From: Octopus sinensis
Lineage: Eukaryota
Direction: 5' to 3'
Assembly: GCF_006345805.1 (NCBI RefSeq)
Contig: NC_042998.1
Location: 62,496,001-62,560,000, forward strand
Length of the DNA: 64,000 nt
Positions 8,419 through 63,600 of this stretch are shown in pieces. The position numbers and the translations under genes are program-made. Position 1 is the first letter of the stretch, and each line of letters begins with the position of its first letter. The notes under the pieces were generated by a model, which saw only the letters and a program-made list of their open reading frames with translations, was not told where the DNA came from and made no database searches.

Positions 8419-10326
8419 TATATATATACGACGGGCTTTCAGTTTCCGTCTACCAAATCCACTCCCAAGGCTTTGGTCGGCTCGAGGCTATAGTAGAAGA
8501 CACTTCCCCAAGTTTCCACGTAGTGGGATTGAATCTGGAACCATGTGGTTGGTAAGCAAGCTTCTTTATTTCATGAAAATTGTCCATAAAAGCCTTACAT
8601 AGAGGGGACAGCACAAGGTGGGAGAAAAAAACAACAAAAAACAGTGAATGGAATTAATGAAATTGTACAATGAAAGACAAAATGAAGCCGCTCGGCCCCA
8701 CTTCCGAGCGACTTCATTGAAACTATACAACTTTGTTTTTTTAAACATTAATTAAAATTACCATTGATAATACCTTTCTGACAGCTAGTTTCCACTTTTT
8801 TGGAAAATGTCTACATCATGTTCTTTTAAAATGTAAGCATAACTCAGCCTTTTAGGTATTTTGCTGGTGTCCATTTTCAGAACCCACCAATCGAAATCAG
8901 CGTTTTCTTCGTAATTTATCCATCTTGAGAGGTACTCCGGGGCTGCCACTGCTCAGAAAACGCCTCCTACTCTTGTTATGTCCACTTCTATTGCTTTTTC
9001 CCATGACTTTATCTCGTTGCAAAGTTCTTTATTCTGTTATATAATATAACAAATTTATCCATAGGCTAGGGTGGGGAAATTTGGGGCTCCTGTGTGTTTG
9101 TGCTCGTGTTTATGTCAGACGGAGTATGGGGAGGGTTTTGTGTCTGTAGGGGGTTGTTGGGGGTAGAGTGGGTGTGGGTGGGAGCCGGATGGGTATGGAT
9201 TGGGGGTCATCCTTTACCACGTGTGTCCTCTTCCTACTCTTCCTCCTCTTCCTTCTCTTTTTTCCCGCCGTTTCCCAGCTGGTGTTTATCTCCTCTTCCT
9301 CGATGCTGGCGCTGGTCTTTGTCTGTGGTGCGCTTCACCCTCCTTCACGTGATTTTCCTCCACCTCCAGGGGTAGTGGAGCACCAACCACTTTCTTGTCT
9401 TTCTTTAGTCTTCGCAGGTGATTATAGTACAATCCGCTCTAATGTGGCCTTTCAGGCCACATTTATAGCATCGAGAAATCCTCTTTTCTACCCTGACTTT
9501 CAGTGTCACGCCTGCGACCGTGATTGTTTCCACCATACTTTCAATATCTTCTGAGTTAATCTGTATCACCATGCCCAGATTCTGTCTTTGCCAGTTTCTG
9601 TAGGGTGCTCTGGTGGCCTGCAGGACCTCTACTTTTTTCTTCCATGCTTAGCAGTATGGCAGCCACCAGCCAGGCTACATTCACTTCTGGTGGTATGTTT
9701 TCTACTCTAACCCTGGAAGCAAGCCTCCCAAGGTACACAGGTAGCAGTACCATCTCATCCGTTTCAACGACATGACCGTGTGCAGTTTAGCAGTTGCTAT
9801 CTCTCTAAACTGCACCTCCATCGTCCGTACTTTCTTCCCTTGGCAAGGTAGGATATCCCTTGCCAGACTGGCCTCCTCCGACACCACTTCTATTTTTCTT
9901 GTTGCCACCGCGTATGTCCTGTAAACAATCGTTTCCTCTTCCTTATCCTTTAACACCTCTTTGGTGGTGTTGTTGTTGGTGGTGAGAAACACTTTCATAT
10001 CGTTCCCCTCCCTTTTAAGTATTTCCTTGAACTTGCTCAGCTCTTACAGACTTATATCTTCAATTTTTCCCTTTGCCGCTGCAGCATAATTCTTTATTTG
10101 TATTGTTGCATCAATCTTGTTCAAACATTCCACCAATTCCTCCTCAGATAAATCAAATTCTGAGGAAGAACACCTCTACATTTCCCAACTTCTCGCTCGA
10201 CACCCCTCCATTACAAGAGAAAAAACGTCACACAGTCAAAAAGCACGTCCGCCTTTCTCAAAACCAGCAAACCGAATGAATCCTGGGTAACCGGAAGTAA
10301 GCTTCTTACCACACAGCCACTCATAC
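8190..10326 (-). mobile_element. SINE family A copy interrupted by a Tx1/L1-like insert
   Basis: SINE body at 8190-8565, head at 10293-10326. 14-bp duplication at 8552-8565 and 10293-10306. Confidence 0.8.
8566..10292 (-). mobile_element. ORF1-only Tx1/L1-like non-LTR element (decayed)
   Basis: Frameshifted ORF1 with an RRM-like LLPVYLGRLASRVRVENIPPEV segment and a CCHC knuckle CYKCGLKGHIRADC (~9430-9472). 3' end ...cttgtgctgtcccctct...aaataa. No endonuclease or RT motifs seen. Confidence 0.7.
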
Positions 10327-25002: not shown

Positions 25003-25205
25003 TGGCAGAATCGTTACCGTGCTAGAAAAGTGATTAGCAGCATTCTGTTCGTCTTTGCATTCTACGTTCAAACTCCACCGAAGTTGACTTTGCCTTTCAT
25101 CCTTTCGGGATCGATAAAATAAGTACCAGTTGATTGCTGGGGTCGATGTAACCGATTTATCCTTGCCGAAACTGCGGTCCTTGTACCAAAATTTGAAGCC
25201 ATTAT
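25003..25205 (+). mobile_element. SINE family B copy
   Basis: ctggcagaatcgtta...gttgactttgcctttcatcctttcgggatcgataaa. Confidence 0.75.
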
Positions 25206-25251
25206 TTCCCCTCTTTCTTTTTTCTCTCCCTCTTCTATCTCTGTCTGTCTA

Positions 25252-26311: not shown

Positions 26312-26710
26312 ATGACGAGCTGGAAGAATCGTTAGCAACGCCGGGCGAAATACGTAGCCGTATTTCGTCTGCCGTTACGTTCTGAGTTCAAATTCCCGCG
26401 CGAGATCTATTTGCCTTTCATCCTTTCGTGGTCGATAAATTAAGTACCAGTTAAGCACTGGGGTCGATGTAATCGACTTAATCCGTTTGTCTGCTCTTGT
26501 TTGTCCTCTCTGTGTTTAACCCCTTGTGGGTAGTAAAGAAATAGGTAGTTCGCTCCTCGCAACTTTCTGAGTTCAAATTCCGCCAAGGTCGACTTTGCCT
26601 TTCATCCTTTCGGGGTCGATAAATTAAGCACCAGTTGCGGCCTGGGATCGATCGAATTGACTGACCCACTTCCTCAAATTTCAGACTTTGTGCCTATAGT
26701 AGAAAGGATT
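26312..26710 (+). mobile_element. Dimeric SINE family B
   Basis: A monomer ending ...ccccttgtgggtagtaaagaaata is followed directly by a headless second monomer ending ...tgtgcctatagtagaaaggatta. Confidence 0.8.
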
Positions 26711-31726: not shown

Positions 31727-32700
31727 TTTTCTTTATTGGCCACAAGGGACGAACACAAAATAGATAGGGACAATACAATACGAGTAATAAATGGGGTTTA
31801 GCACAATGTCGTGTATAAAATAAATAACAAAAACAACAATAAAATTAAACAATAAAAATCCCCCCAAAGCGAGGAACAACCGAGAAACTCTACACATCCT
31901 GGTTACCCCGACCACCAGGGGTACCTCAGGAGGTGCCTCTCTCCTTCTCAACTCTTCTGATTTACAAAGGAATGTTCAGAGTAGGACCATTCTCACGGGC
32001 CACTCTCGCCATATTCACTCATCTTTCAACAAAAATATTGGGTGTGGTGAGGTGCGGTTCGGGGTGGGTGGGGTTTGGGGGCAGAACTTTCCTCTCCATC
32101 ATCGCTTTCCTTTTCTGGCGGAACTTGAAAAAGCTGATGAGGGCTTGGCCGAAGAGGTAAGTATCTGTCTTCAGTCCTTTCAAGCTCATCCACCACACTT
32201 TCCCCTTCGGCAAAGCCACCAGACAGGAAAAAATTGCCTTCCTTCTCAACCAAAAAAACCAAAAAAAACCCAGCAGGGTGATCTTCCCGATGGACTCAGT
32301 TGAAAACCGAATCGTACATGCATCAACAGCTGTTCAATAAAGATCCACAAGTCAGTATTGTCTGGACACTGGACTAGTGCAGACAGCACTTCTGTGTTTG
32401 TAAAGCTTGTCTCGAAACGGCAGAGCTCCTCGGCGGCATTTCCAGGTCAGGCCAGGCCAGGCCAGGCCAAGGATTTCGGGAAATTATCCATAGGCCCTGG
32501 CCCGAAAGTCTTCCAGAAAAAGATTCCTCCCGACGCCCAGAGTTTTCCCGAGGATGTCGTCGCTCTTGCTCACCACTAATTCCCTATAGAACTCCATAGT
32601 GGAACTTCCACCGACCGCATTGCCCGACTGGCAGAGGATGAGCGCTAGCCGACACTTCAGGTGTCAAGCAACCTTTCTCGGCCTACGTTATATCTAGGAC
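31727..32700 (-). mobile_element. Tx1/L1-clade LINE, ORF2 C-terminus plus 3' UTR (5'-truncated, decayed)
   Basis: Minus-strand peptides STMEFYRELV..., PGPMDNFPKSLAW..ALPFRDKLYKH and AIFSCLVAL.K..VWW..LKGL. 3' end ttgtccct...cccttgtggccaataaagaaa. Confidence 0.7.
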
Positions 32701-32864
32701 TGTAGCTCAATCAATTAAAACGAACTGCAGAAAATCCTGTCTGACAAAAGGCGACACACACTCACCGTTAAGAAAACGCTGAAGGTGTCGAAGCCTCAGT
32801 GCATGTCTGGTCATCATAAGCCACGGTATGGTCAGTCCTTTACTCACCGGCTTTTGACAGCAGA

Positions 32865-33088
32865 CGACCGTTGTGTCTATAATAATTGGTGCACTGGGAA
32901 CTGTAAGCGAAGATATAGACAATTGGCTGAAGGAGATTGCAATAGAATGTTCTGTATAACTTCTACAAAAAGTTCGCCTCTTAGGGATAGGAAAGATTAT
33001 CAGGAGTGTTCTACGCACTTGAAAGACTATCGAACCTAAAGTTACTGGTAGTAACACTCTAAGTTCATAAATCCTGCCAGGAATAACC

Positions 33089-33176: not shown

Positions 33177-34320
33177 CAAGACGAAGAGCGCGATTCGACT
33201 GTTAAAGATATTTTACTGGTTGAACGATATTTAACAGTAAGTCTGCTTGTTCAAAATAAGAGGTGATAAAAATTCAAAATTATAGAAAACTAAATGTAAA
33301 GTATGAACGAGAGTAACCAGCGTCCACACGTTGATGGAATGACATCATCAGTTTTTATAATTTCAATTTTATAACAGGCGAAAAGAAAATGACAGAAAAA
33401 CGAAGATAAAAAAGACATAAAAAAGAGGAAAGAAAAATGAAAAAAAAAGAAGAATATCTAATCAAACAGTTTTGTATAAATTTGATGATATTCTCCTGTC
33501 ATTTTATTCATTCCTCTATTTCTGACTCCAAGAAAACGAACATTGGAGTATCTGGACGCTGTACTTTGAAAAACAACCGCAAGAGAAGTAAGCCCTGTTC
33601 ATTGTGCAACAACATGACTCAAGTGAATTCCATCATGAATCATAACAGAAATGTTATGACTTATACAGAAAGTGGGACATGTAGAGATTCCCATTTGGTG
33701 TACCCGGCAGAATGCACGAAACAACTTGATTTATGTTGGTTGTACAACAGAACAATTAAACAAAAGGTTTAATGGGCATTGATTCAACGTCAGGCACAAT
33801 AACAGTAGTTCGACAGAACTTGCCGAACATTTCGTTTCAAACGGCTGTAATTTTGAAAAAGACTAGAATGTGCATATTATCAGAAAATATTTCGAATCTG
33901 CTTCACTTTCACCTCTCAGAATGCATGAGGAATAATATGTTTGCGGGTTATTAACATCACGCCCTGGAGGAATGAATAAAAGGACAGGAGAATATCATCA
34001 AATTTATAAAAAACTATTTGAGTAAATATTCTTTTCCCTTTTCATTTTTATTTCCTCTTTTCTTCTATCTTTTTTTTCTGTCTTTTTTTCTGTCTTTTTC
34101 TTTTCGCCTGTTATAAAATTGAAACTTAGAGACTGATGATGTTATTCCATTAACGTATGGACGCTGGTTGCTCTCGTTCATACTTTGAATTTAAATTTCT
34201 ATAATTTCGAATTTTTATCTCTTCTTATTTGGAACTTGACAAAGACAGACTTACTGTCGAAATATCGTTCAACCATTAAAATATCTATTACAATCAAATC
34301 ACGCTTTTCATCTTGATTGT
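33174..34320 (+). mobile_element. Penelope-like element relic: GIY-YIG remnant between ~240-bp inverted repeats
   Basis: Across frameshifts: C..C...CRDSHLVY.AEC...YVGCTTEQLNKRFNGH...ELAEHF...PGGMN. 33174-33410 is inverted relative to 34090-34320. Confidence 0.85.
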
Positions 34321-34340
34321 TTACATTTAAATATAATAAC

Positions 34341-34399
<59 letters not shown>

Positions 34400-34402
<3 letters not shown>

Positions 34403-35338
34403 GCTATAAAACAAAAGCTATAAAACAAATGAAATCCAAACTAAAAATAGAACAGCAACGAGCCATGATAAAACGATGGCAAGAAAAACCCCTTCATGGT
34501 AAATACTGCATTAAACTAAACGCAAAAGAAATAGACAAAGACAAATCCCAGCAATGGTTGAGAAGCTCAGGACTCAAAGCAGAAACAGAGGGATTTTTAA
34601 TTGCAGCACAAGACCAAAGCCTCCCCACCAGAAATTACCAAAAACATGTAATGAAAAGAAATATTACAAGTAACTGCAGAATATGTGGAGATGGACAAGA
34701 AACAATAAATCATATTATCTCTAGCTGCCCAGTCCTGGCTAAGAAGGAATATATTCACAGACATGACAGAGTTGGAGCCTACATACATTGGAAGCTATGC
34801 CAACATTATGGAATAACAACAGAAAAAAGATGGTATAGGCACACACCAGAAAAGGTCACAGAAAACGAGAAAGCAGCCATACTCTGGGATATGCCGATAC
34901 ACACAGATAGAGAAATTAAGGCCAACAGACCAGATATAGTTGTCAGAGATCATGAAGAAAAAAAATGCTTTCTAATTGATGTATCAATACCGGCAGATGA
35001 CAACGTGTCTCTAAAAGAAATGGAGAAACTCTCAAAATACAAAGACCTGGAAATAGAGGTAACTAGAATGTGGAACCTGAAAACAGAAACAATTCCTATC
35101 ATAGTAGGTGCATTAGGCATGATAAAAAAATATTCAGACAAATACATAACAAAAACACCAGGACTTACAAACACATATAACATACAGAAAATTGCACTAC
35201 TAGGCACTGCACACATCCTACGCAGAACACTTTCCATACAATAACCATCAGAGCATCACAACAAATCACAGCACATACCCAAGGTACACAGAGCTGCGCT
35301 CGGTAGTGAAGTGAAAGCACGCTATAAAAATAAAACTA

Positions 35339-35342
<4 letters not shown>
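34400..35342 (+). mobile_element. R4/Dong-clade non-LTR retrotransposon, 5'-truncated, with open CCHC plus restriction-like endonuclease region (ORF 34429-35244)
   Basis: 271-aa ORF with CRICGDGQETINHIISSC, RHD, RPDIV..D, IDVS and EKLSKY motifs. Short 3' UTR. Flanked by (AAT)n on both sides. Confidence 0.92.
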
Positions 35343-35400
<58 letters not shown>

Positions 35401-35414
35401 TAATAATAATATTA

Positions 35415-35910
35415 AAATATGATAAATAGAACTGGTATGCGGATACAAATGTTACGGCAAAACGATCAACTACCTTTTATTTATGGATGACCTAAAACTA
35501 TACGCTACAAATGACAAACAGCTGGAAACACTATTAAAGACAGTTCATGGATTTACCAAAGAAATAGATATGAAATTTGGATTAGAAAAATGCGCCAAAG
35601 TAACACTGAAAAGAGGGAAACTAGTGAAGAGCAGAAACATCACACTAGATAAAGCCAATGAAGTAAGAGAATTAGACCAAAGCCCAACTTACAAATATTT
35701 AGAAATCCATGAACTAGACATGACACAACACACACAAATGAAAGAGAAAATAAAGAAAGAATACTATAGACGAGTTAAATCAATACTGAAAACTGAACTC
35801 AATGCTAAAAACAAGATAATAGGTATTAACACTTTAGCCGTCCCAGTTATAAGTTACAGCTACAATATCCTTAACTGGATACTAAATGAACTAATTAGAG
35901 GAACTAAGTG
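35415..35910 (+). mobile_element. R4/Dong-like reverse transcriptase fragment
   Basis: INYLLFMDDLKLYA...FGLEKCA...YKYL: RT domains 5-7 with FMDD. Confidence 0.85.
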
Positions 35911-35949
35911 AATTAAAAGAGGAAGAAAAGCAAAGGAAACACAGTCCCT

Positions 35950-36200
35950 TAAAATTTTGAATAGGCAGAATTTGGAGCATAAGGTCATGCCTATAATAAT
36001 TGGTGCAATGGGAACAGTAAGCCAAGATATAGACAAATGGCTGAGAGAGATTGAAATAGAATGCCCGGTAGATCTTCTACAGAAAGTTTGTCTATTAGGG
36101 ACAGCAAGGATTATCAAGAGGGTCCTAAGCACCTAAGGTTAGAGGTCGTTACCCGCTGCCCACATAAAGGAATAAGACCGGACCTGATCTTTGTTTCTGT
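35950..36200 (+). mobile_element. R4/Dong-like 3' end fragment, related to the 32865 fragment
   Basis: VMPIIIGAMGTV...LLQKVCLLGTARIIKRVLS, then (AAT)n. Confidence 0.75.
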
Positions 36201-36247
36201 AATAATAATAACAATAATAATAATAATAATAATTAATAATAATAATA

Positions 36248-36294
<47 letters not shown>

Positions 36295-36379
36295 TGATAA
36301 TAATAATGATGATGATAATAATAATAATAACAATAATGATAATAATAATAATAATGATGATGATAATAATAATAATAAC

Positions 36380-36424
<45 letters not shown>

Positions 36425-36438
<14 letters not shown>

Positions 36439-36720
36439 TAATGGACTCTCAATAAGAGAATAACTAACCTCAGCGAAAGAAACACTTAAACAAAAAGTTC
36501 AGGCTAAAGCTCAGAGAATACGCAGATTTGAGAAAAGAATCAAATACTACAAACAAAATAAGATGTTCGAATCCAATGCCAAATCATTTTACAGGGAAAT
36601 AGGGAAAGAAAAAAATAACCATTGAAAACACACCCCTAATGGAAGAAGTTGAAAACTTTTGGAAAGAGATCTGGAGTGATGAGAAACCATACAATGAAAA
36701 TGCAGACTGGATCAAACGCA
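36425..36720 (+). mobile_element. R4/Dong-like pre-RT ORF fragment
   Basis: KVQAKAQRIRRFEKRIKYYKQNKMFESNAKSFYRE...VENFWKEIWS...ADWI. Begins in (AAT)n. Confidence 0.7.
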
Positions 36721-37617: not shown

Positions 37618-37820
37618 AGGCGACGATCTGGCAGAAACGTTAGCACGCCGGGCGAAATGCTTCGTCTGTCTTTACGTTCTGAGTTCAAATTCCGCCGAGG
37701 TCGACTTTGCCTTTCATCCTTTCGGGGATCGATAAATTAAGTACCAGTTGCGTGCTGGTTCGATCTAATCGACTGGCCTCCCCACCCCCAAAATTTCGGG
37801 CCTTGTACCTAGAGTAGAAG
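37618..37820 (+). mobile_element. SINE family B monomer
   Basis: ggcgacgatctggcagaaacgttagcacgccgggcgaaatg...aaatttcgggccttgtacctagagtagaa. Confidence 0.8.
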
Positions 37821-41204: not shown

Positions 41205-41420
41205 AATGGAGCGTGGCTCTAGAATCGTTAGCACACTAGGAAAAAAGCTTACCGACTTTTTGCCCTCTTTTACGTTCTGAGTTCAAATCTCGCCGAGCCT
41301 ACTTTACATTTCATCCTTTCGGGGTCGATAAAATGAGTATCAGTCAAACTCCGGGGTTGATATAATCGATTAGTCCCTGCCCCCGAAATTTCTGGCCTTG
41401 TGCTACAAATTTGAAACCGT
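41205..41420 (+). mobile_element. SINE family B copy
   Basis: agaatcgttagcac...ttctgagttcaaat...catcctttcggggtcgataaa. Confidence 0.75.
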
Positions 41421-41439
41421 TATTTCACATTTCGCTTTT

Positions 41440-43095
41440 ATAGGCGCAGGAGTGGTTGTGTGGTAAGAAGCTTGCTTACAGGAATGCGTTGTTGTCAGTG
41501 TCTTTGTTTGCACCGAAAGAAGTGGCCATGCTGGTTTGCAGCGTGGCGGCGAATTAAGTGAAGCTCAACTGCAAGGAAGACTTTTGCTTTTTGGGATTCA
41601 GTGGGGGTTTGTTGTTTGGTGTTTATTTTTTCTTTTCAAGTAAGAAATCCTCACTGAGTTCCGGGCATCTGTCTGCCTGTAGTTGGGCATAAGTATCTCA
41701 CTTAGCGGTGAGAAGTGTGTTTTGGGGGCGTATCTCTCCTTCAATAATTGCGAACATTGTGCTTAGTTTTTACCCATTTTTTGGTGAAATTGTTGTGTGA
41801 CTGTACTGTTTTGTATCCTGGATTACCAAGTGGATTAACCGAGTTGGACAGGAGTACCAAGACAGTCAGAAGAATAGTTTGCTGTGTTTTTTAACTGTTT
41901 TCCTTTCTTCCTTTCTTCATTTTTGTTTTTTTGAACGCTTTGAACGTTTGTTTTTCTGTGAACTTTTTACCCCCCAAAACATGGCAAAAAGGATGAACAA
42001 CACTGCGTTGGAGTTGGAGATTATCCCACCCAAATAGTGGATAAATGACTTTGAAGAGAGGACGTTGGTGTTGAGGACTTACTCAAAGTCGCTCGACACC
42101 ATCACCCTCTTTAAAAAGATAAAAATTGAAAAAGAGTTGGCAGAGTATCTGCCATCTATAAAATAATAAAATTTCCAGGGTTGGAGGTCAAGTATGCAAC
42201 GGTGTGGTTGCTATTTCACATTCCTGGGGAGGCTCGCAAATTTGCGAGCCAGCCCTTAGTGGGCAAAGAAATTTTGTTTCTTCCCACGTATTATGGGAAG
42301 AAGTTCACAAGAGCTTGGGTCTGTGGGTTGCCACTTGGGATAGAATCCGAGTGGATAGAAGATACTATCCGCCGGGGTCTGGGTGGCAGCGGATCCAAGC
42401 TGCTTAATGTAAAAATTTTGCCGGCTGTTGATTGGGTTGGGTCAAAATAACTTCCTTTCATCTTTCATTATATAATTTCATTCCCTCCATTAGTTTCGTT
42501 TTTTTTTTGTGTCCAACTTGTGCTGTCCCCTCTGTATAAGGCGATTATTGCCAATTTCATAAAATAAAGAAATTTCCTATCCAACCACATAGTTTCGAGT
42601 TCATTCTCACTGCGTGGCACCTTGGGCAAGTGTCTTCTACCATAACCTCGGGTTGACCAAAGCCTTGTGAGTGTATTTCGCCAATGAAAACTATATATAT
42701 ATATATACATATGAAATGGAGAAATTGTATAAAATGTATATATAGATGAAGAGTAAAGCACCGGTAAAGTTTCAATTACCTGTTGTTATCCGTAGATTTA
42801 TTGCAGGAACTTCGTAGTGGCGGCTGGGGTAACAGTATTAATAAAATATTTGTGTGTATTTGTGTGTGAGTATGTGCGTGTGCGTGTGTGTGTGCCTTTG
42901 AGTGTATTTGTCCCCCACCACCGCTTGGCAACCAACGTCGGTATTTTTACGTACTTGTAAACTTTTAAACAGTTCGACAAAAGTAACCGATAAAATAAGT
43001 ACGAGGCTTAAAAAAGGACTAGAGTCGATTCGTTCGATTAAAATACTTAAAGGCGGTGCCTCACGTTAATGACTGATACCAGTAAAAGTAAGAAA
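41440..43095 (+). mobile_element. SINE family A copy interrupted by a Tx1/L1-like insert
   Basis: Head at 41440-41479, body resumes at 42568-42700, 3' half at 42850-43095. Confidence 0.75.
41480..42567 (+). mobile_element. Second ORF1-only Tx1/L1-like element (shorter, decayed)
   Basis: EERTLVLRTY...FLPTYYGKKFTRAWVCGLP is homologous to the 9.7-kb ORF1 (EEETIVYRTY...LLPVYLGRLASRVRVENIP). Same 3' end cttgtgctgtcccctct...caatttcataaaataa. Confidence 0.7.
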
Positions 43096-43729
43096 AGACA
43101 AGATGAAGAAGAAAGGGAATTATTTATCTAAAAGCAAAAACAAAAAGGAAACAGCCCTTATTTTCCTTTGATTAATCTCTGCATGGTTCGACTTCTAAAC
43201 TTTTCGAAGCTCTCTGTAATCGAGCAAGTCAAATAGAACATTTTTTCATTTCGTAAACATCTTTCGCTTCGAGAAGCGACATGAAAAGTGAACGATAATA
43301 CTCCTTGTTTATGCAAGCGTTTGTAAAACCTTATAAAATCCTGAAGATATATATTCACAAGAAGCTTCAAAAGATTATTCAAATAGCAATGCTAAATGTG
43401 TACAATCTCATAGAAATTTACCAAAAGAAGCAATAGAAATGAGAAATTAGGAGATACATCAAGGACGAAGATGTTTAGAGGATGGAAGTTAAAAAAATAC
43501 ACTTCATGATCATTCCATAAAATGAATAAATATATTCGAAAGCAGCAAAATCGTTGTTATTACTGTGATTTAAACCCAGATAATCCCTGATCAAAAACCG
43601 TGTAGCAAGAGTTACATTATCCAGTGTGTCCTTTTTTTCAACAAGGTAAGGTGTAATCTGAAAGAACATTTACTTTCTATTTCTTGAAGCACAACAAAAC
43701 CCGGAAAAATACAATCAAAACTAATCACC

Positions 43730-47096: not shown

Positions 47097-47475
47097 AAGA
47101 CAGGAGTGGCTGTGTGGTAAGTAGCTTGCTTCCCTACCACATGGCTCGGGTTCAGTCCCACTGCGTTGCGCCTTGGGAAAATGTTTTCTACTATAACCTC
47201 GGGCCGACCAAGGCCTTGTGAGTGGATTTAGTAGGCAGAAACTGAAAGACGCCCGTCGTGTATATATAATTATATGTGTGTGTATATGAATGTCTGTGTA
47301 TCTGTGTTTGTCCCCCACCATAGCTTGACAACCGATGTTGGTGTGTTCAGGTCCCCATAACTTAGCGGTTCGGCAAAATGAACCAATAGAATAAGTCCTG
47401 GGGTTGATTTGTTCGACTAAAGGTGGTGCTCCAGCATGGTCGCAGTCAAATGACTGAAACAAATAAAAGAATAAA
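47097..47475 (+). mobile_element. SINE family A, full length
   Basis: caggagtggctgtgtggtaag head, central TA/TG microsatellite, conserved tail. Confidence 0.85.
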
Positions 47476-52208: not shown

Positions 52209-52596
52209 TAGACGTAGGAGTGACTGTGTGGTAAGTAGCTTGCTTACCAACCACATGGTTCCGGGATCAGTCCCACTGCGTTGTATCTTGGGCAAGTGCC
52301 TTCTACTATAGCCTCGGGCCGACTAAAGTCTTGTGAGTGGATTTGGTAGACGGAAACTGAAAGAAGCCCGTCGTATATATGTGTATGTGTGTGTGTATAT
52401 GTTTGTGTTCGTATTTATCCCCACAACATCTCTTGACAACCGATGCTGGTGTATTTACGTCTCCGTTACTTAGCGATTCGGCAAAAGGGACCGATAGAAT
52501 AAGTGCTAGGCTTACAAAGAGTAAATCCTGGGGTCGATTTGCTCGACTAAAAGGCGATGCTCCAGCATGGTCGCAGTCAAATCACTGGAACAAATA
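52209..52596 (+). mobile_element. SINE family A, full length
   Basis: Same head, central microsatellite and tail as the 47097 copy. Confidence 0.85.
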
Positions 52597-58376: not shown

Positions 58377-58894
58377 TAGGCGCAGGAGCGGCTGTGCGGT
58401 AAGTAGCTTACTTACCAACCACATGGTTCCGGGTTCAGTCCCACTGCGTTGCACCTTGGGCAAGTGTCTTCTTCTATAGCCTCGAGCCGACCAAAGCCTT
58501 GTGAGTGGATTTGGTAGGCGGAAACTGAAAGAAGCCCGTCGTATGTATATATATAAATGACAAGACAACAAGAGAATGAAAGAGACCTCGATAGTATGTA
58601 AATAGAGGAATTTATCTGTAAATATATGTGACAATTCTTCGGTAGCCATGATATAACTCCGAGTTTCGGATGTCGGAGCGGAAACCCACGCCGGCATCTC
58701 TTCAGTTATGGGGCCATCGAAAAGAAAAATACAATGAAAATGACCGTTAATTCCCCTTTGTTTTAACGGTCATTTTCATAGCATTTTTTTCGATGGCCCC
58801 ATAACTGAAGAGATGCCGGTGTGGATTTCGCCCAGACATCCGAAACTCGGAGTTTTATCATGGCTACCAAACAATTGTCAGATATTATGTTTAC

Positions 58895-59502: not shown

Positions 59503-60255
59503 AGGCCGGGCGAAACGCGTAGCTGTATTTCGTCTGCCGTTACGTTCTGAGTTCAAATTCCGCCGAGGTCGACTTTGCCTTTCATTCTTTCGGGGTTGCT
59601 TGAATAAAAACCAGTTACGCACTGGGGTCGATGCAATCGACTTAATCCGTGTGTCTGTCCTTGTTTGTCCCCCCTGTGTGTAGTAAAGAAATAGGTATTT
59701 CGTCTGTCTTTATGTTCTGAGTTCAAATTCCGCCGAGGTCGGGTCGATGAATTAAGTACCCGTTGCATACAGGGGTCGATCTAATCAACTTACCCCTCCT
59801 TCAAAATTTCGGGCCTTGTGTCCAGAGTAGAAAAGAATAGAATGAGCTTGACAAGGCGGTGAGCTAGCTGAAACGTTAGTACGCCGGGTGAAATGCTTAC
59901 CGGTATTTCGTCCGCCGCTGCGTTCTGAGTTCAAATTCCGCCGAAGTTGACTTTGCATTTCATCCTTTCGGGGTCGATAAATTAAGCACCAGTTACGCAC
60001 TGGGGTCGAAATAATCGACTTAATCCGTTAGTCTGTTCTTGTTTGTTCTCTCTGTGTTTAGCCCCATGCGGGTAGTAAAGAAATAGGTATTTCGTCTGTT
60101 TTTACGTTCTGAGTTCAAATTCCGCCGAGGTAGACTTTGCCTTTCATCCTTTCGCGGTCGATAAATTAAGAACCTGTTGCGTACTGGAGTCGATCTAGTC
60201 GACTGGTTCCCTCCCCCAAAATTTCGGGCCTTGTGTCTGGACTAGAAAAGAATAA
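59503..60255 (+). mobile_element. Two consecutive dimeric SINE family B units
   Basis: The pattern [monomer + gtaaagaaata][ggtatttcgtctg monomer + gtagaaaagaata] occurs twice. Confidence 0.85.
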
Positions 60256-63140: not shown

Positions 63141-63174
<34 letters not shown>

Positions 63175-63177
63175 AAT

Positions 63178-63600
63178 TGTTTCAAATTTTGGATCAAGGC
63201 CAAAACCGTAAGAAGATGGTAATCGATTATATCGACTCAACTGATTGACAAGTAACATATCTTATCGACTGCGGAAAGATGAAAGGAAAGTAGACTGCGG
63301 CGCGATTTGAACTCAGAACCTTAAGTGTTAGCTAACGATTAAGCTAAGTCGTCGCCTTAACAATGATTTCTTTTATTATATCTAATGATCCTTTCTACTT
63401 TAGGCACAAGGCCTGAACTTTAGGGGAGGGGGCCAGTCGATTACATTGACCCCAGTACACAACTGATACTTATTTTATCGACCTCGAAAGGATGAATAGT
63501 AAATTCGACCTCGGCTGAATTTGAACTCAGAACGTTAGCGACAAGCGAAATGCCGGTAAACATTTTTCGGCGCGCTATCTATTGTGCCAGCTCGCCGCCT
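63178..63600 (-). mobile_element. Two SINE family B copies
   Basis: Reverse complement of the ggcggcgagctggca...ttctgagttcaaat pattern, twice. Confidence 0.7.

Follow-up and report, generated by a model that had tools for sequence, protein, structure and literature searches.

The split SINE and its insert

The window, that is, the whole stretch of 64,000 nucleotides of Octopus sinensis DNA that was analysed, contains a tRNA-like SINE with its start at 41443; an insert of 1.09 kb interrupts it after 41479, and it resumes at 42567. The host register is restored in silico once the insert and one flank copy are taken out, and the 5' and 3' parts of the host are 86% identical over 37 nt and 87% identical over 98 nt, respectively, to the intact head at 58379. 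The remainder of the host is 80–87% identical to other copies over its first ~100 nt and 68–73% identical over its distal part. The features of the locus and of the related sequences in the window are as follows.

41443..41464, plus strand: host tRNA-like SINE head, 5' part, with an A-box-like motif at 41453-41463; 86% identical to the head at 58379 over 37 nt
41465..41479, plus strand: target-site duplication, 5' copy; 10/15 against the 3' copy
41480..41980, plus strand: family-A 5' UTR; 19/19 other family-A loci begin at the same SINE site
41981..42447, plus strand: family-A ORF1, N-terminal half; stops at 42035, 42164 and 42167, one frameshift, no knuckle
42448..42449, plus strand: A/B junction, two bases foreign to both families
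42450..42566, plus strand: family-B 3' tail; 79–86% identical to the family-B tails of fetched loci
42540-42552, plus strand: conserved 4-bp/5-nt hairpin in the tail, with covariation
42567..42581, plus strand: target-site duplication, 3' copy, decayed
42582..43098, plus strand: rest of the host SINE (body, microsatellite, 3' part); B-box-like motif near 42598-42608
8567..10292, minus strand: family-B ORF1-only element of 1.73 kb at the same SINE site, decayed, CCHC knuckle present
10293-10307 and 8552-8566: duplication copies of the element at 8567..10292
47101..47236, plus strand: uninterrupted T-type SINE head
52213..52352, plus strand: uninterrupted T-type SINE head
58379..58520, plus strand: uninterrupted T-type SINE head

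An earlier note on this DNA had described the insert as a second, divergent ORF1-only element at the same SINE nucleotide as another one. Its bounding flanks, 41466-41479 and 42568-42581, do match at 9 of 14 positions, or 10 of 15 with the preceding A, and the minus-strand element at 8567-10292 indeed occupies the identical SINE position. The two elements differ in their 5' sequence, only the last ~126 nt being common to both with 78% identity, and both targets read AAGAAGC whereas the three intact heads read AAGTAGC, as had been noticed. The position just after an A-box-like motif stands, but the letters given for the motif do not, and they read TGGTTGTGTGG here. The "8.6-kb element" of the note is 1.73 kb long, 8.6 kb being its position.

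The host head carries box-like A and B motifs and aligns locally to genomic tRNA-Lys. ARAGORN calls one head as a tRNA at a relaxed threshold and finds no tRNA in the 64-kb window, and an intact head has no Rfam tRNA match at E<=5. LINE 3' fragments ending in (AAT)n lie on the plus strand at 34240-35420 and 35426-36650, and we take them to be RTE-like from their look. A second abundant SINE-like family is present at 41221-41439, 37620-37820, 25007-25221, 26375-26635, 59540-60235 and 63173-63568; one copy immediately precedes the host SINE, and inserts are seen in none of these copies. A long imperfect inverted repeat at 58640-58830 lies in or behind the SINE at 58379, and its Rfam matches are far below gathering scores. 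An octopus CORE-SINE, OR2, is named in PMC4758252.

Chimeric nature of the window copy

The insert is not a second clean element but a chimera, in which 968 nt of one family, family A, are joined to the tail of another, family B. A search of the 2.72-Gb genome with the first 970 nt of the insert gave 44 matches, of which 20 loci were fetched. The SINE site is the 5' start in all 19 other family-A loci (three near-identical, ~17 independent), and these loci extend beyond the breakpoint of the window copy, in most cases reaching a CCHC knuckle. The 10 loci whose end lies in the fetched DNA are about 1.6–2.1 kb long and have a tail different from that of the window copy. When the last 120 nt were used as a query, the matches mostly carried, upstream, the ORF1 of the element at 8.6 kb, which defines family B. 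The window copy therefore follows family A to 42447, has two extra bases and continues as a family-B tail. Hence the 3' end is common to the two window elements, as had been stated, but it belongs to family B and is not family A's own.

The ORF1 of the insert is present only as its N-terminal half, interrupted by stops and a frameshift and deprived of the CCHC knuckle. Its pieces are 62–72% identical at the amino acid level to family-A copies, about 30% to the ORF1 of the LINE described below and 27–28% to other family-B copies, in agreement with the earlier view that the two ORF1s are only distantly similar.

None of the 39 other scored matches runs more than 6 nt past the A/B junction, which rules out an amplified chimeric subfamily; a common short B subfamily is ruled out by the differing breakpoints of L004, L009 and L027. 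Tandem stacks are common; by eye, a duplication and the 5' end of another element come after 5 of 29 family-B tails. Copies also commonly show independent internal deletions with both ends retained, and homology at the A/B junction is slight. A deletion across a tandem A–B pair would be the simplest and most likely origin of the chimera; a template switch, which the sequence does not separate from a deletion, is the alternative. The window copy is a dead one-off chimera and matters only as a pointer to the system to which its parts belong.

Site specificity across the genome

The pattern of the shared 3' tail has 559 exact matches genome-wide, compared with 3 for a reversed control, and 412 of the 559 continue with AAGWAG, the site in the D arm of one particular tRNA-like SINE, compared with none for the control. 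As only exact matches were counted, both 559 and 412 are lower bounds. Among the first 30 tail matches by position, 27 lie in the SINE and 1 in a tandem, and 2 are unclear (L251, L268). Family-B tails, found with a query that included 3 nt of flank, are followed by the target with at most 4 mismatches of 14 in 28 of 29 cases, L010 being the one without a clear target; 21 of the 28 then continue into the SINE body and 7 into a tandem element or a broken SINE. With 28/29, 30/30 and 28/30 tails on target in three samples, the flanks are not mostly random. Nine 5'-truncated inserts of 71–1652 nt have duplications that match their own target for 9–16 nt, which marks separate insertion events. A LINE and at least two ORF1-only families are found at the same nucleotide, in the same orientation and with a 15–16-nt duplication. 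The central claim of the earlier note, target-specific retroposition by independent insertions at a single nucleotide within an abundant tRNA-like SINE, is thus upheld against both of the outcomes that it had named as fatal, random flanks and, as described below, a unit of SINE head and insert.

Two young-LINE insertions occupy sites that resemble the target: L119 (G000:C13) lies in a non-SINE repeat, and L121 (G000:C10) before an extra 19-nt copy of the head. Both are useful for defining the minimal target.

The position of the site in the D-arm-to-anticodon region of a tRNA-like head raises the question of whether a tRNA gene or array is the true target and the SINE heads only an abundant sink. 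There is a precedent in Dewa, a Tx1-type element that targets a tRNA-Leu spacer (PMC3706591). Yet none of 27 distinct tRNA sequences (30 loci, six isotypes) has the 7-mer at the D-arm site, and no tRNA gene follows any sampled tail, which makes a tRNA target very unlikely. The check that the earlier note had suggested, whether real tRNA genes are also hit, gave no sign of it in these 30 tRNA loci, which contain no element tail, although this is a weak test in which split genes would be missed. tRNA-Phe alone has the AAGTAGC 7-mer, near its 5' end (7 copies among L191-L220), in a context like that of the L119 off-target site, and is a possible secondary target.

ORF1-only riders and a probable partner LINE

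Family A measures ~1.6–2.2 kb end to end in 11 loci and family B 1.73 kb, and so both are too short for an ORF2. The family-B ORF1 is 41–45% identical to the N-terminal part of the LINE ORF1 and the family-A ORF1 31%, and the two rider ORF1s are 23–29% identical to each other. In the database, the family-A ORF1 has only two relatives, both of them octopus proteins. Comparison of rider subfamilies gives a dN/dS of 0.09–0.38 in 19 of 20 pairs, one pair resting on 13 codons, and 0.88 at a dS of 0.05 in the remaining pair, indicating purifying selection on rider ORF1. Another group of riders with an ORF1, the third (L071, L072, L057, L075), is 33–43% identical in amino acids to family B and has its own tail at the same site.

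The LINE and the riders share a 3' hairpin with a 4-bp stem and a 5-nt loop. In 62 tails chosen from 84 distinct ones, 90% of cells are paired and 34 two-sided changes are seen, a result reached in 0/500 shuffles, and slid controls give 18–48%. The hairpin model was derived from these same, related tails and the shuffles ignore relatedness, so that the covariation is supportive and carries no probability. We infer that the hairpin would be recognised by the ORF2 protein (ORF2p) of the partner LINE.

To find the partner, 7 kb upstream of 20 junctions were fetched, 17 of T type (AAGTAG) from the top of the list and 3 of A type (AAGAAG) chosen for traces of ORF2. Two LINEs are present at the site, L087 of 5.46 kb and the older L098 of 5.37 kb. 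In Pfam, the ORF1 of L087 has zf-CCHC above the cut-off, as does L025, whereas L029 and L094 have it below the cut-off; its ORF2 matches Exo_endo_phos (1e-12), RVT_1 (1e-28) and zf-RVT (7e-09). The best named relative of the partner reverse transcriptase (RT) is from Argonauta, with 60% identity, and the closest named hits carry no annotation. The proximity of part of the LINE ORF1 to CCHC and ZCCHC3-RBD clusters, at 0.91–0.93 in the Atlas, serves as a lead only. Copies of the young LINE are 97–99% identical to the query copy in their 3' parts, and 30 of 30 tails, including the L087 query locus, are followed by AAGTAG; 27 of these lie in a SINE body, 1 in a tandem, 1 at a non-SINE look-alike and 1 at a look-alike upstream in the SINE. 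No translated copy of the young LINE is fully open, breaks being found in both ORFs of L087 and in at least ORF2 of L179 and L180. The riders were likely mobilised in trans by the endonuclease (EN) and RT of this LINE.

At 1547-1600 of L087, a short hairpin in the 5' leader is flanked on either side by a direct copy of an 11-mer that resembles the target; it has no Rfam match. The window also contains, at 31727-32870 on the minus strand, the decayed 3' part of a sister LINE that adjoins (ATT)n arrays. It is 38% identical in amino acids to the C-terminal part of the partner's ORF2 (RT) and has a similar hairpin tail. Triplet repeats of several kinds, mostly ATT, follow 19 of 20 of its genomic loci, suggesting that it is a microsatellite-targeting relative.

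5' junctions and the upstream A box

The 5' junction ends in TAACC, with recurrent one-base insertions, in 33 of 35 full-length young LINEs; of the other two, one has an exact copy of the target and one is slightly truncated. Identical duplications are found in 11 of 30 young LINEs read at both ends, and the 5' copy is still TAACC in 12 of 13 whose 3' copy is of another type, suggesting that the distal part of the 5' "duplication" is likely derived from RNA. By the behaviour of these young copies, the distal part of the 5' duplication copy in the window may also come from the element's own RNA leader, and such a leader may contribute to the poor 9/14 match of the flanks.

The uniform 5' copy and the presence of a SINE head directly upstream of nearly all full-length LINE copies would be expected if head and insert together formed one element that Pol III transcribes from the start of the SINE and that multiplies as a whole. 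However, the upstream heads have locus-specific changes, 2 of the 35 full-length LINEs (L146, L150) have the tail of another element upstream instead of a head, and no head duplications are seen. Among 43 copies of one LINE the 3' half of the SINE varies as well (22 TAACC-type, 17 TTACC-type, 4 other). Inserts at the site range from 71 nt to 5.46 kb, begin with several unrelated 5' ends, belong to several families and form tandem stacks, and T4 runs begin within about 20–100 nt of the element start. A composite unit is therefore hardly credible. Contig joints that skip the insert are explained by intact SINEs elsewhere.

The earlier note had placed the insert downstream of a Pol III A box. The position is a fact, but use of that box as a promoter is not supported. 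Type-2 Pol III promoters need both A and B boxes, and the insertion separates them. Transcription from the upstream A box was rejected, the B box being displaced by 1–5.5 kb; neither four reference elements nor the window copy has a B-box match within its first 400 nt. The early T4 runs and the two full-length LINEs that lack an upstream head also speak against it.

A-type and T-type targets

There are 32,572 exact intact heads and 352 exact 3' junctions in the genome, neither pattern covering the TAACC subfamily, and so ~1% of exact heads are occupied. By hand count, A-type sites account for 10 heads and 33 junctions among the first 100 of each (p 1e-4). A-type heads are thus occupied more densely, and T-type heads hold most exact junctions. 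The idea that the AGAAGC subfamily is the landing site holds for the old families only; a restriction to AGAAGC is rejected for the system as a whole, 67 of the first 100 junctions being AGTAGC.

Among 37 intact heads in 701 kb, 11 are A-type, 19 T/TTACC, 5 T/TAACC and 2 other, and their divergence from the yardstick is about 15% for A-type, 6.5% for T/TTACC and 2% for T/TAACC. The young LINE has a T-type target in 43 of 43 loci, compared with 11 A-type heads among the 37 (Fisher p 8e-5), a background of heads in repeat-rich flanks scored by a T-type yardstick. Against a 10% background of exact heads, the chance of 0/43 A-type is ~0.01 by hand; the shift is thus explained in part by a requirement for a near-perfect site. 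In the first 100 rows of the tail listing, counted by hand, two tail types are followed by the A-type target in 31/31 cases and four by the T-type target in 45/45, the other 24 rows being rarer tail types that were left out. The LINE and family A each have old A-type and younger T-type members, and the heads occupied by the old families are themselves old ones of the AAGAAG type. These elements may have inserted before the T-types arose, but the young ones avoid A-type heads that are still present. A shift of the site preference from AAGAAG to AAGTAG is likely, though not proven. Comparison of two old with two young LINEs shows a difference in the EN loop, which is a lead only as to the cause of the target change.

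These observations lead to an explanation that seems evenly poised between right and wrong: the LINE and its riders would be hyperparasites of the SINE that cut between its A and B boxes and disable copies, and that were re-specified from AAGAAG to AAGTAG, through the EN loop or the RNA 3' end, thereby tracking the SINE subfamilies. The same pattern could arise if specificity had not shifted at all, an enzyme that takes both AAGAAG and AAGTAG needing a long, near-intact site, so that young elements avoid decayed old heads and old elements met only the subfamily then present. The divergence of A-type heads (~15%, against 6.5% and 2% for the T-types) fits such an enzyme, and the old riders, with 75–87% identity between copies, may predate the T-types. 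However, the A type still accounts for ~10 of 100 exact 31-nt heads, and yet all 43 young-LINE loci are T-type, as are 45/45 rows of the four T-linked tail types, and the young LINE has also entered visibly mutated T-type heads. An unchanged specificity is therefore unlikely.

A change of preference that needs no change of protein, which is somewhat less improbable though still doubtful, would follow if the targeting were set mainly by RNA–DNA pairing: transcripts that read through into the downstream SINE would pair with the primer by their 3' end, and preference would follow the source locus. The perfect linkage of tail types to target types (45/45 T and 31/31 A in the hand count of the first 100 rows) is consistent with this, as are the end of the sister microsatellite-associated LINE in AATAAAGAA, which matches the start of the A-type target, and the target-like sequence already present at the RNA 5' end. 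L121 has AAGTAGC before a site upstream of the usual one, but a prior 19-nt duplication in the SINE explains this equally well. L117 and truncated copies have target-specific changes in both duplication copies, and the differing EN loops of two old and two young LINEs point to the protein. RNA pairing would modify the insertion mechanism proposed below more than replace it.

Relation to known systems

Tx1 ORF2 comprises an APE endonuclease, an RT and a C-terminal zinc motif, a set also found in L1, and Tx1 ORF1 has a CCHC knuckle. The ORF2 of L087 contains the same three parts, and among PDB entries it comes closest to human L1 ORF2p (E 4e-33), ahead of R2 (3e-17). The partner LINE is likely a member of the Tx1 clade. 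Target specificity has been taken to exist where more than 20% of copies share a flank type (PMC4494074), a fraction exceeded here by 412/559, 28/30 and 30/30. The EN hairpin loop of Tx1L has eleven residues with an RDGH tip, at the position of the target-reading hairpin of L1 (PMC1950540); here, there are 9 residues between a conserved T and S, the tip being GDGR in young copies and of another sequence in old copies, and the comparison is with Tx1L as one Tx1 member and not with a family definition.

Tx1L inserts into Tx1D in Xenopus, and Tx1-Mar into Mariner-N4_AMi in crocodilians, with SINEU riders and tandem insertions (PMC4494074). The octopus system resembles them in having an APE-type LINE, a repeat as target, non-autonomous riders at the target and tandem insertions that sandwich the duplication. 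It differs in that the target is a tRNA-like SINE head, that 74% (exact) to over 90% of tails lie at one nucleotide, that the riders encode ORF1 and that the target type changes with the age of the SINE subfamily. HAL1, or half-L1, is a non-autonomous LINE derivative that encodes only ORF1p and has arisen more than once (PMC5753468). The riders likewise encode ORF1 without ORF2, but they do not stem from mammalian L1, their ORF1 relates to the local LINE (31–45%), and they have no poly(A) tail, a covarying hairpin and target specificity. Thus, they work like HAL1 but are not HAL1. The sister LINE in the window, with triplet repeats after 19/20 loci, resembles the microsatellite-targeting Tx1 elements Kibi and Koshi (PMC4494074), from which it differs in its repeat unit, mostly ATT.

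R2 uses a restriction-like endonuclease. Similarities to R2, which is co-transcribed (PMC4494074), and to Dada, which inserts into multicopy RNA genes (PMC3706591), lie in the use of a multicopy RNA-gene-like sequence as a safe site and in the target-like sequence at the RNA 5' end; Dada, however, is a DNA transposon, and the head is not carried along here. No Rfam ribozyme family matched the LINE 5' end. Published lists of targets, as far as the accessible text of these sources goes, name DNA transposons, LTR elements, snRNA, 5S, satellites and microsatellites, and SINEs are absent from them. Octopus repeats are reported to include L1-Tx1, with no targets given in the accessible text (PMC13282606, PMC8967140). 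A literature search whose reach stopped short of Repbase Reports and most subscription papers found no paper on a SINE-targeting LINE.

Proposed mechanism and implications

The insert in the window is very probably a decayed chimera of two ORF1-only riders that share one SINE-head site, likely inserted by target-primed reverse transcription with the EN and RT of a related, probably Tx1-clade LINE. Trans-mobilisation, the nick positions and the function of the hairpin are deduced from sequence comparison in what follows. The ORF2p of the LINE would bind the 3' hairpin of its own or of a rider RNA and nick the bottom strand across from GGT|AAGWAGC, to within two A, whereupon the terminal A's of the RNA would pair with the primer. 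The top strand would be cut 9–16 nt downstream. In full-length copies the target-like leader of the RNA would join at the top-strand cut, and for this reason the two duplication copies would often differ. The duplication would regenerate the site, giving tandem stacks, and the window copy would have arisen by deletion across a tandem A–B pair (most likely) or by a template switch. With the rise of younger SINE subfamilies, AAGTAG would have replaced AAGAAG as the preferred site.

Among APE LINEs, target specificity has been described for RNA genes, microsatellites and DNA transposons. The octopus system adds a strict SINE-head target, with ORF1-only riders and hundreds of dated insertions. The pressure of the inserts on the SINE is probably small, given that ~1% of exact heads are occupied. 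The young family, with its partly RNA-derived 5' "duplication", bears on how the second strand is joined, and ORF1-only families under purifying selection beside a partner that would recognise the hairpin offer a test of why riders keep ORF1. If the hyperparasite explanation is true, the octopus elements would provide a dated natural series of target re-programming, in which old and young enzyme–target pairs one base apart would make it testable whether a protein loop or RNA pairing sets the target.
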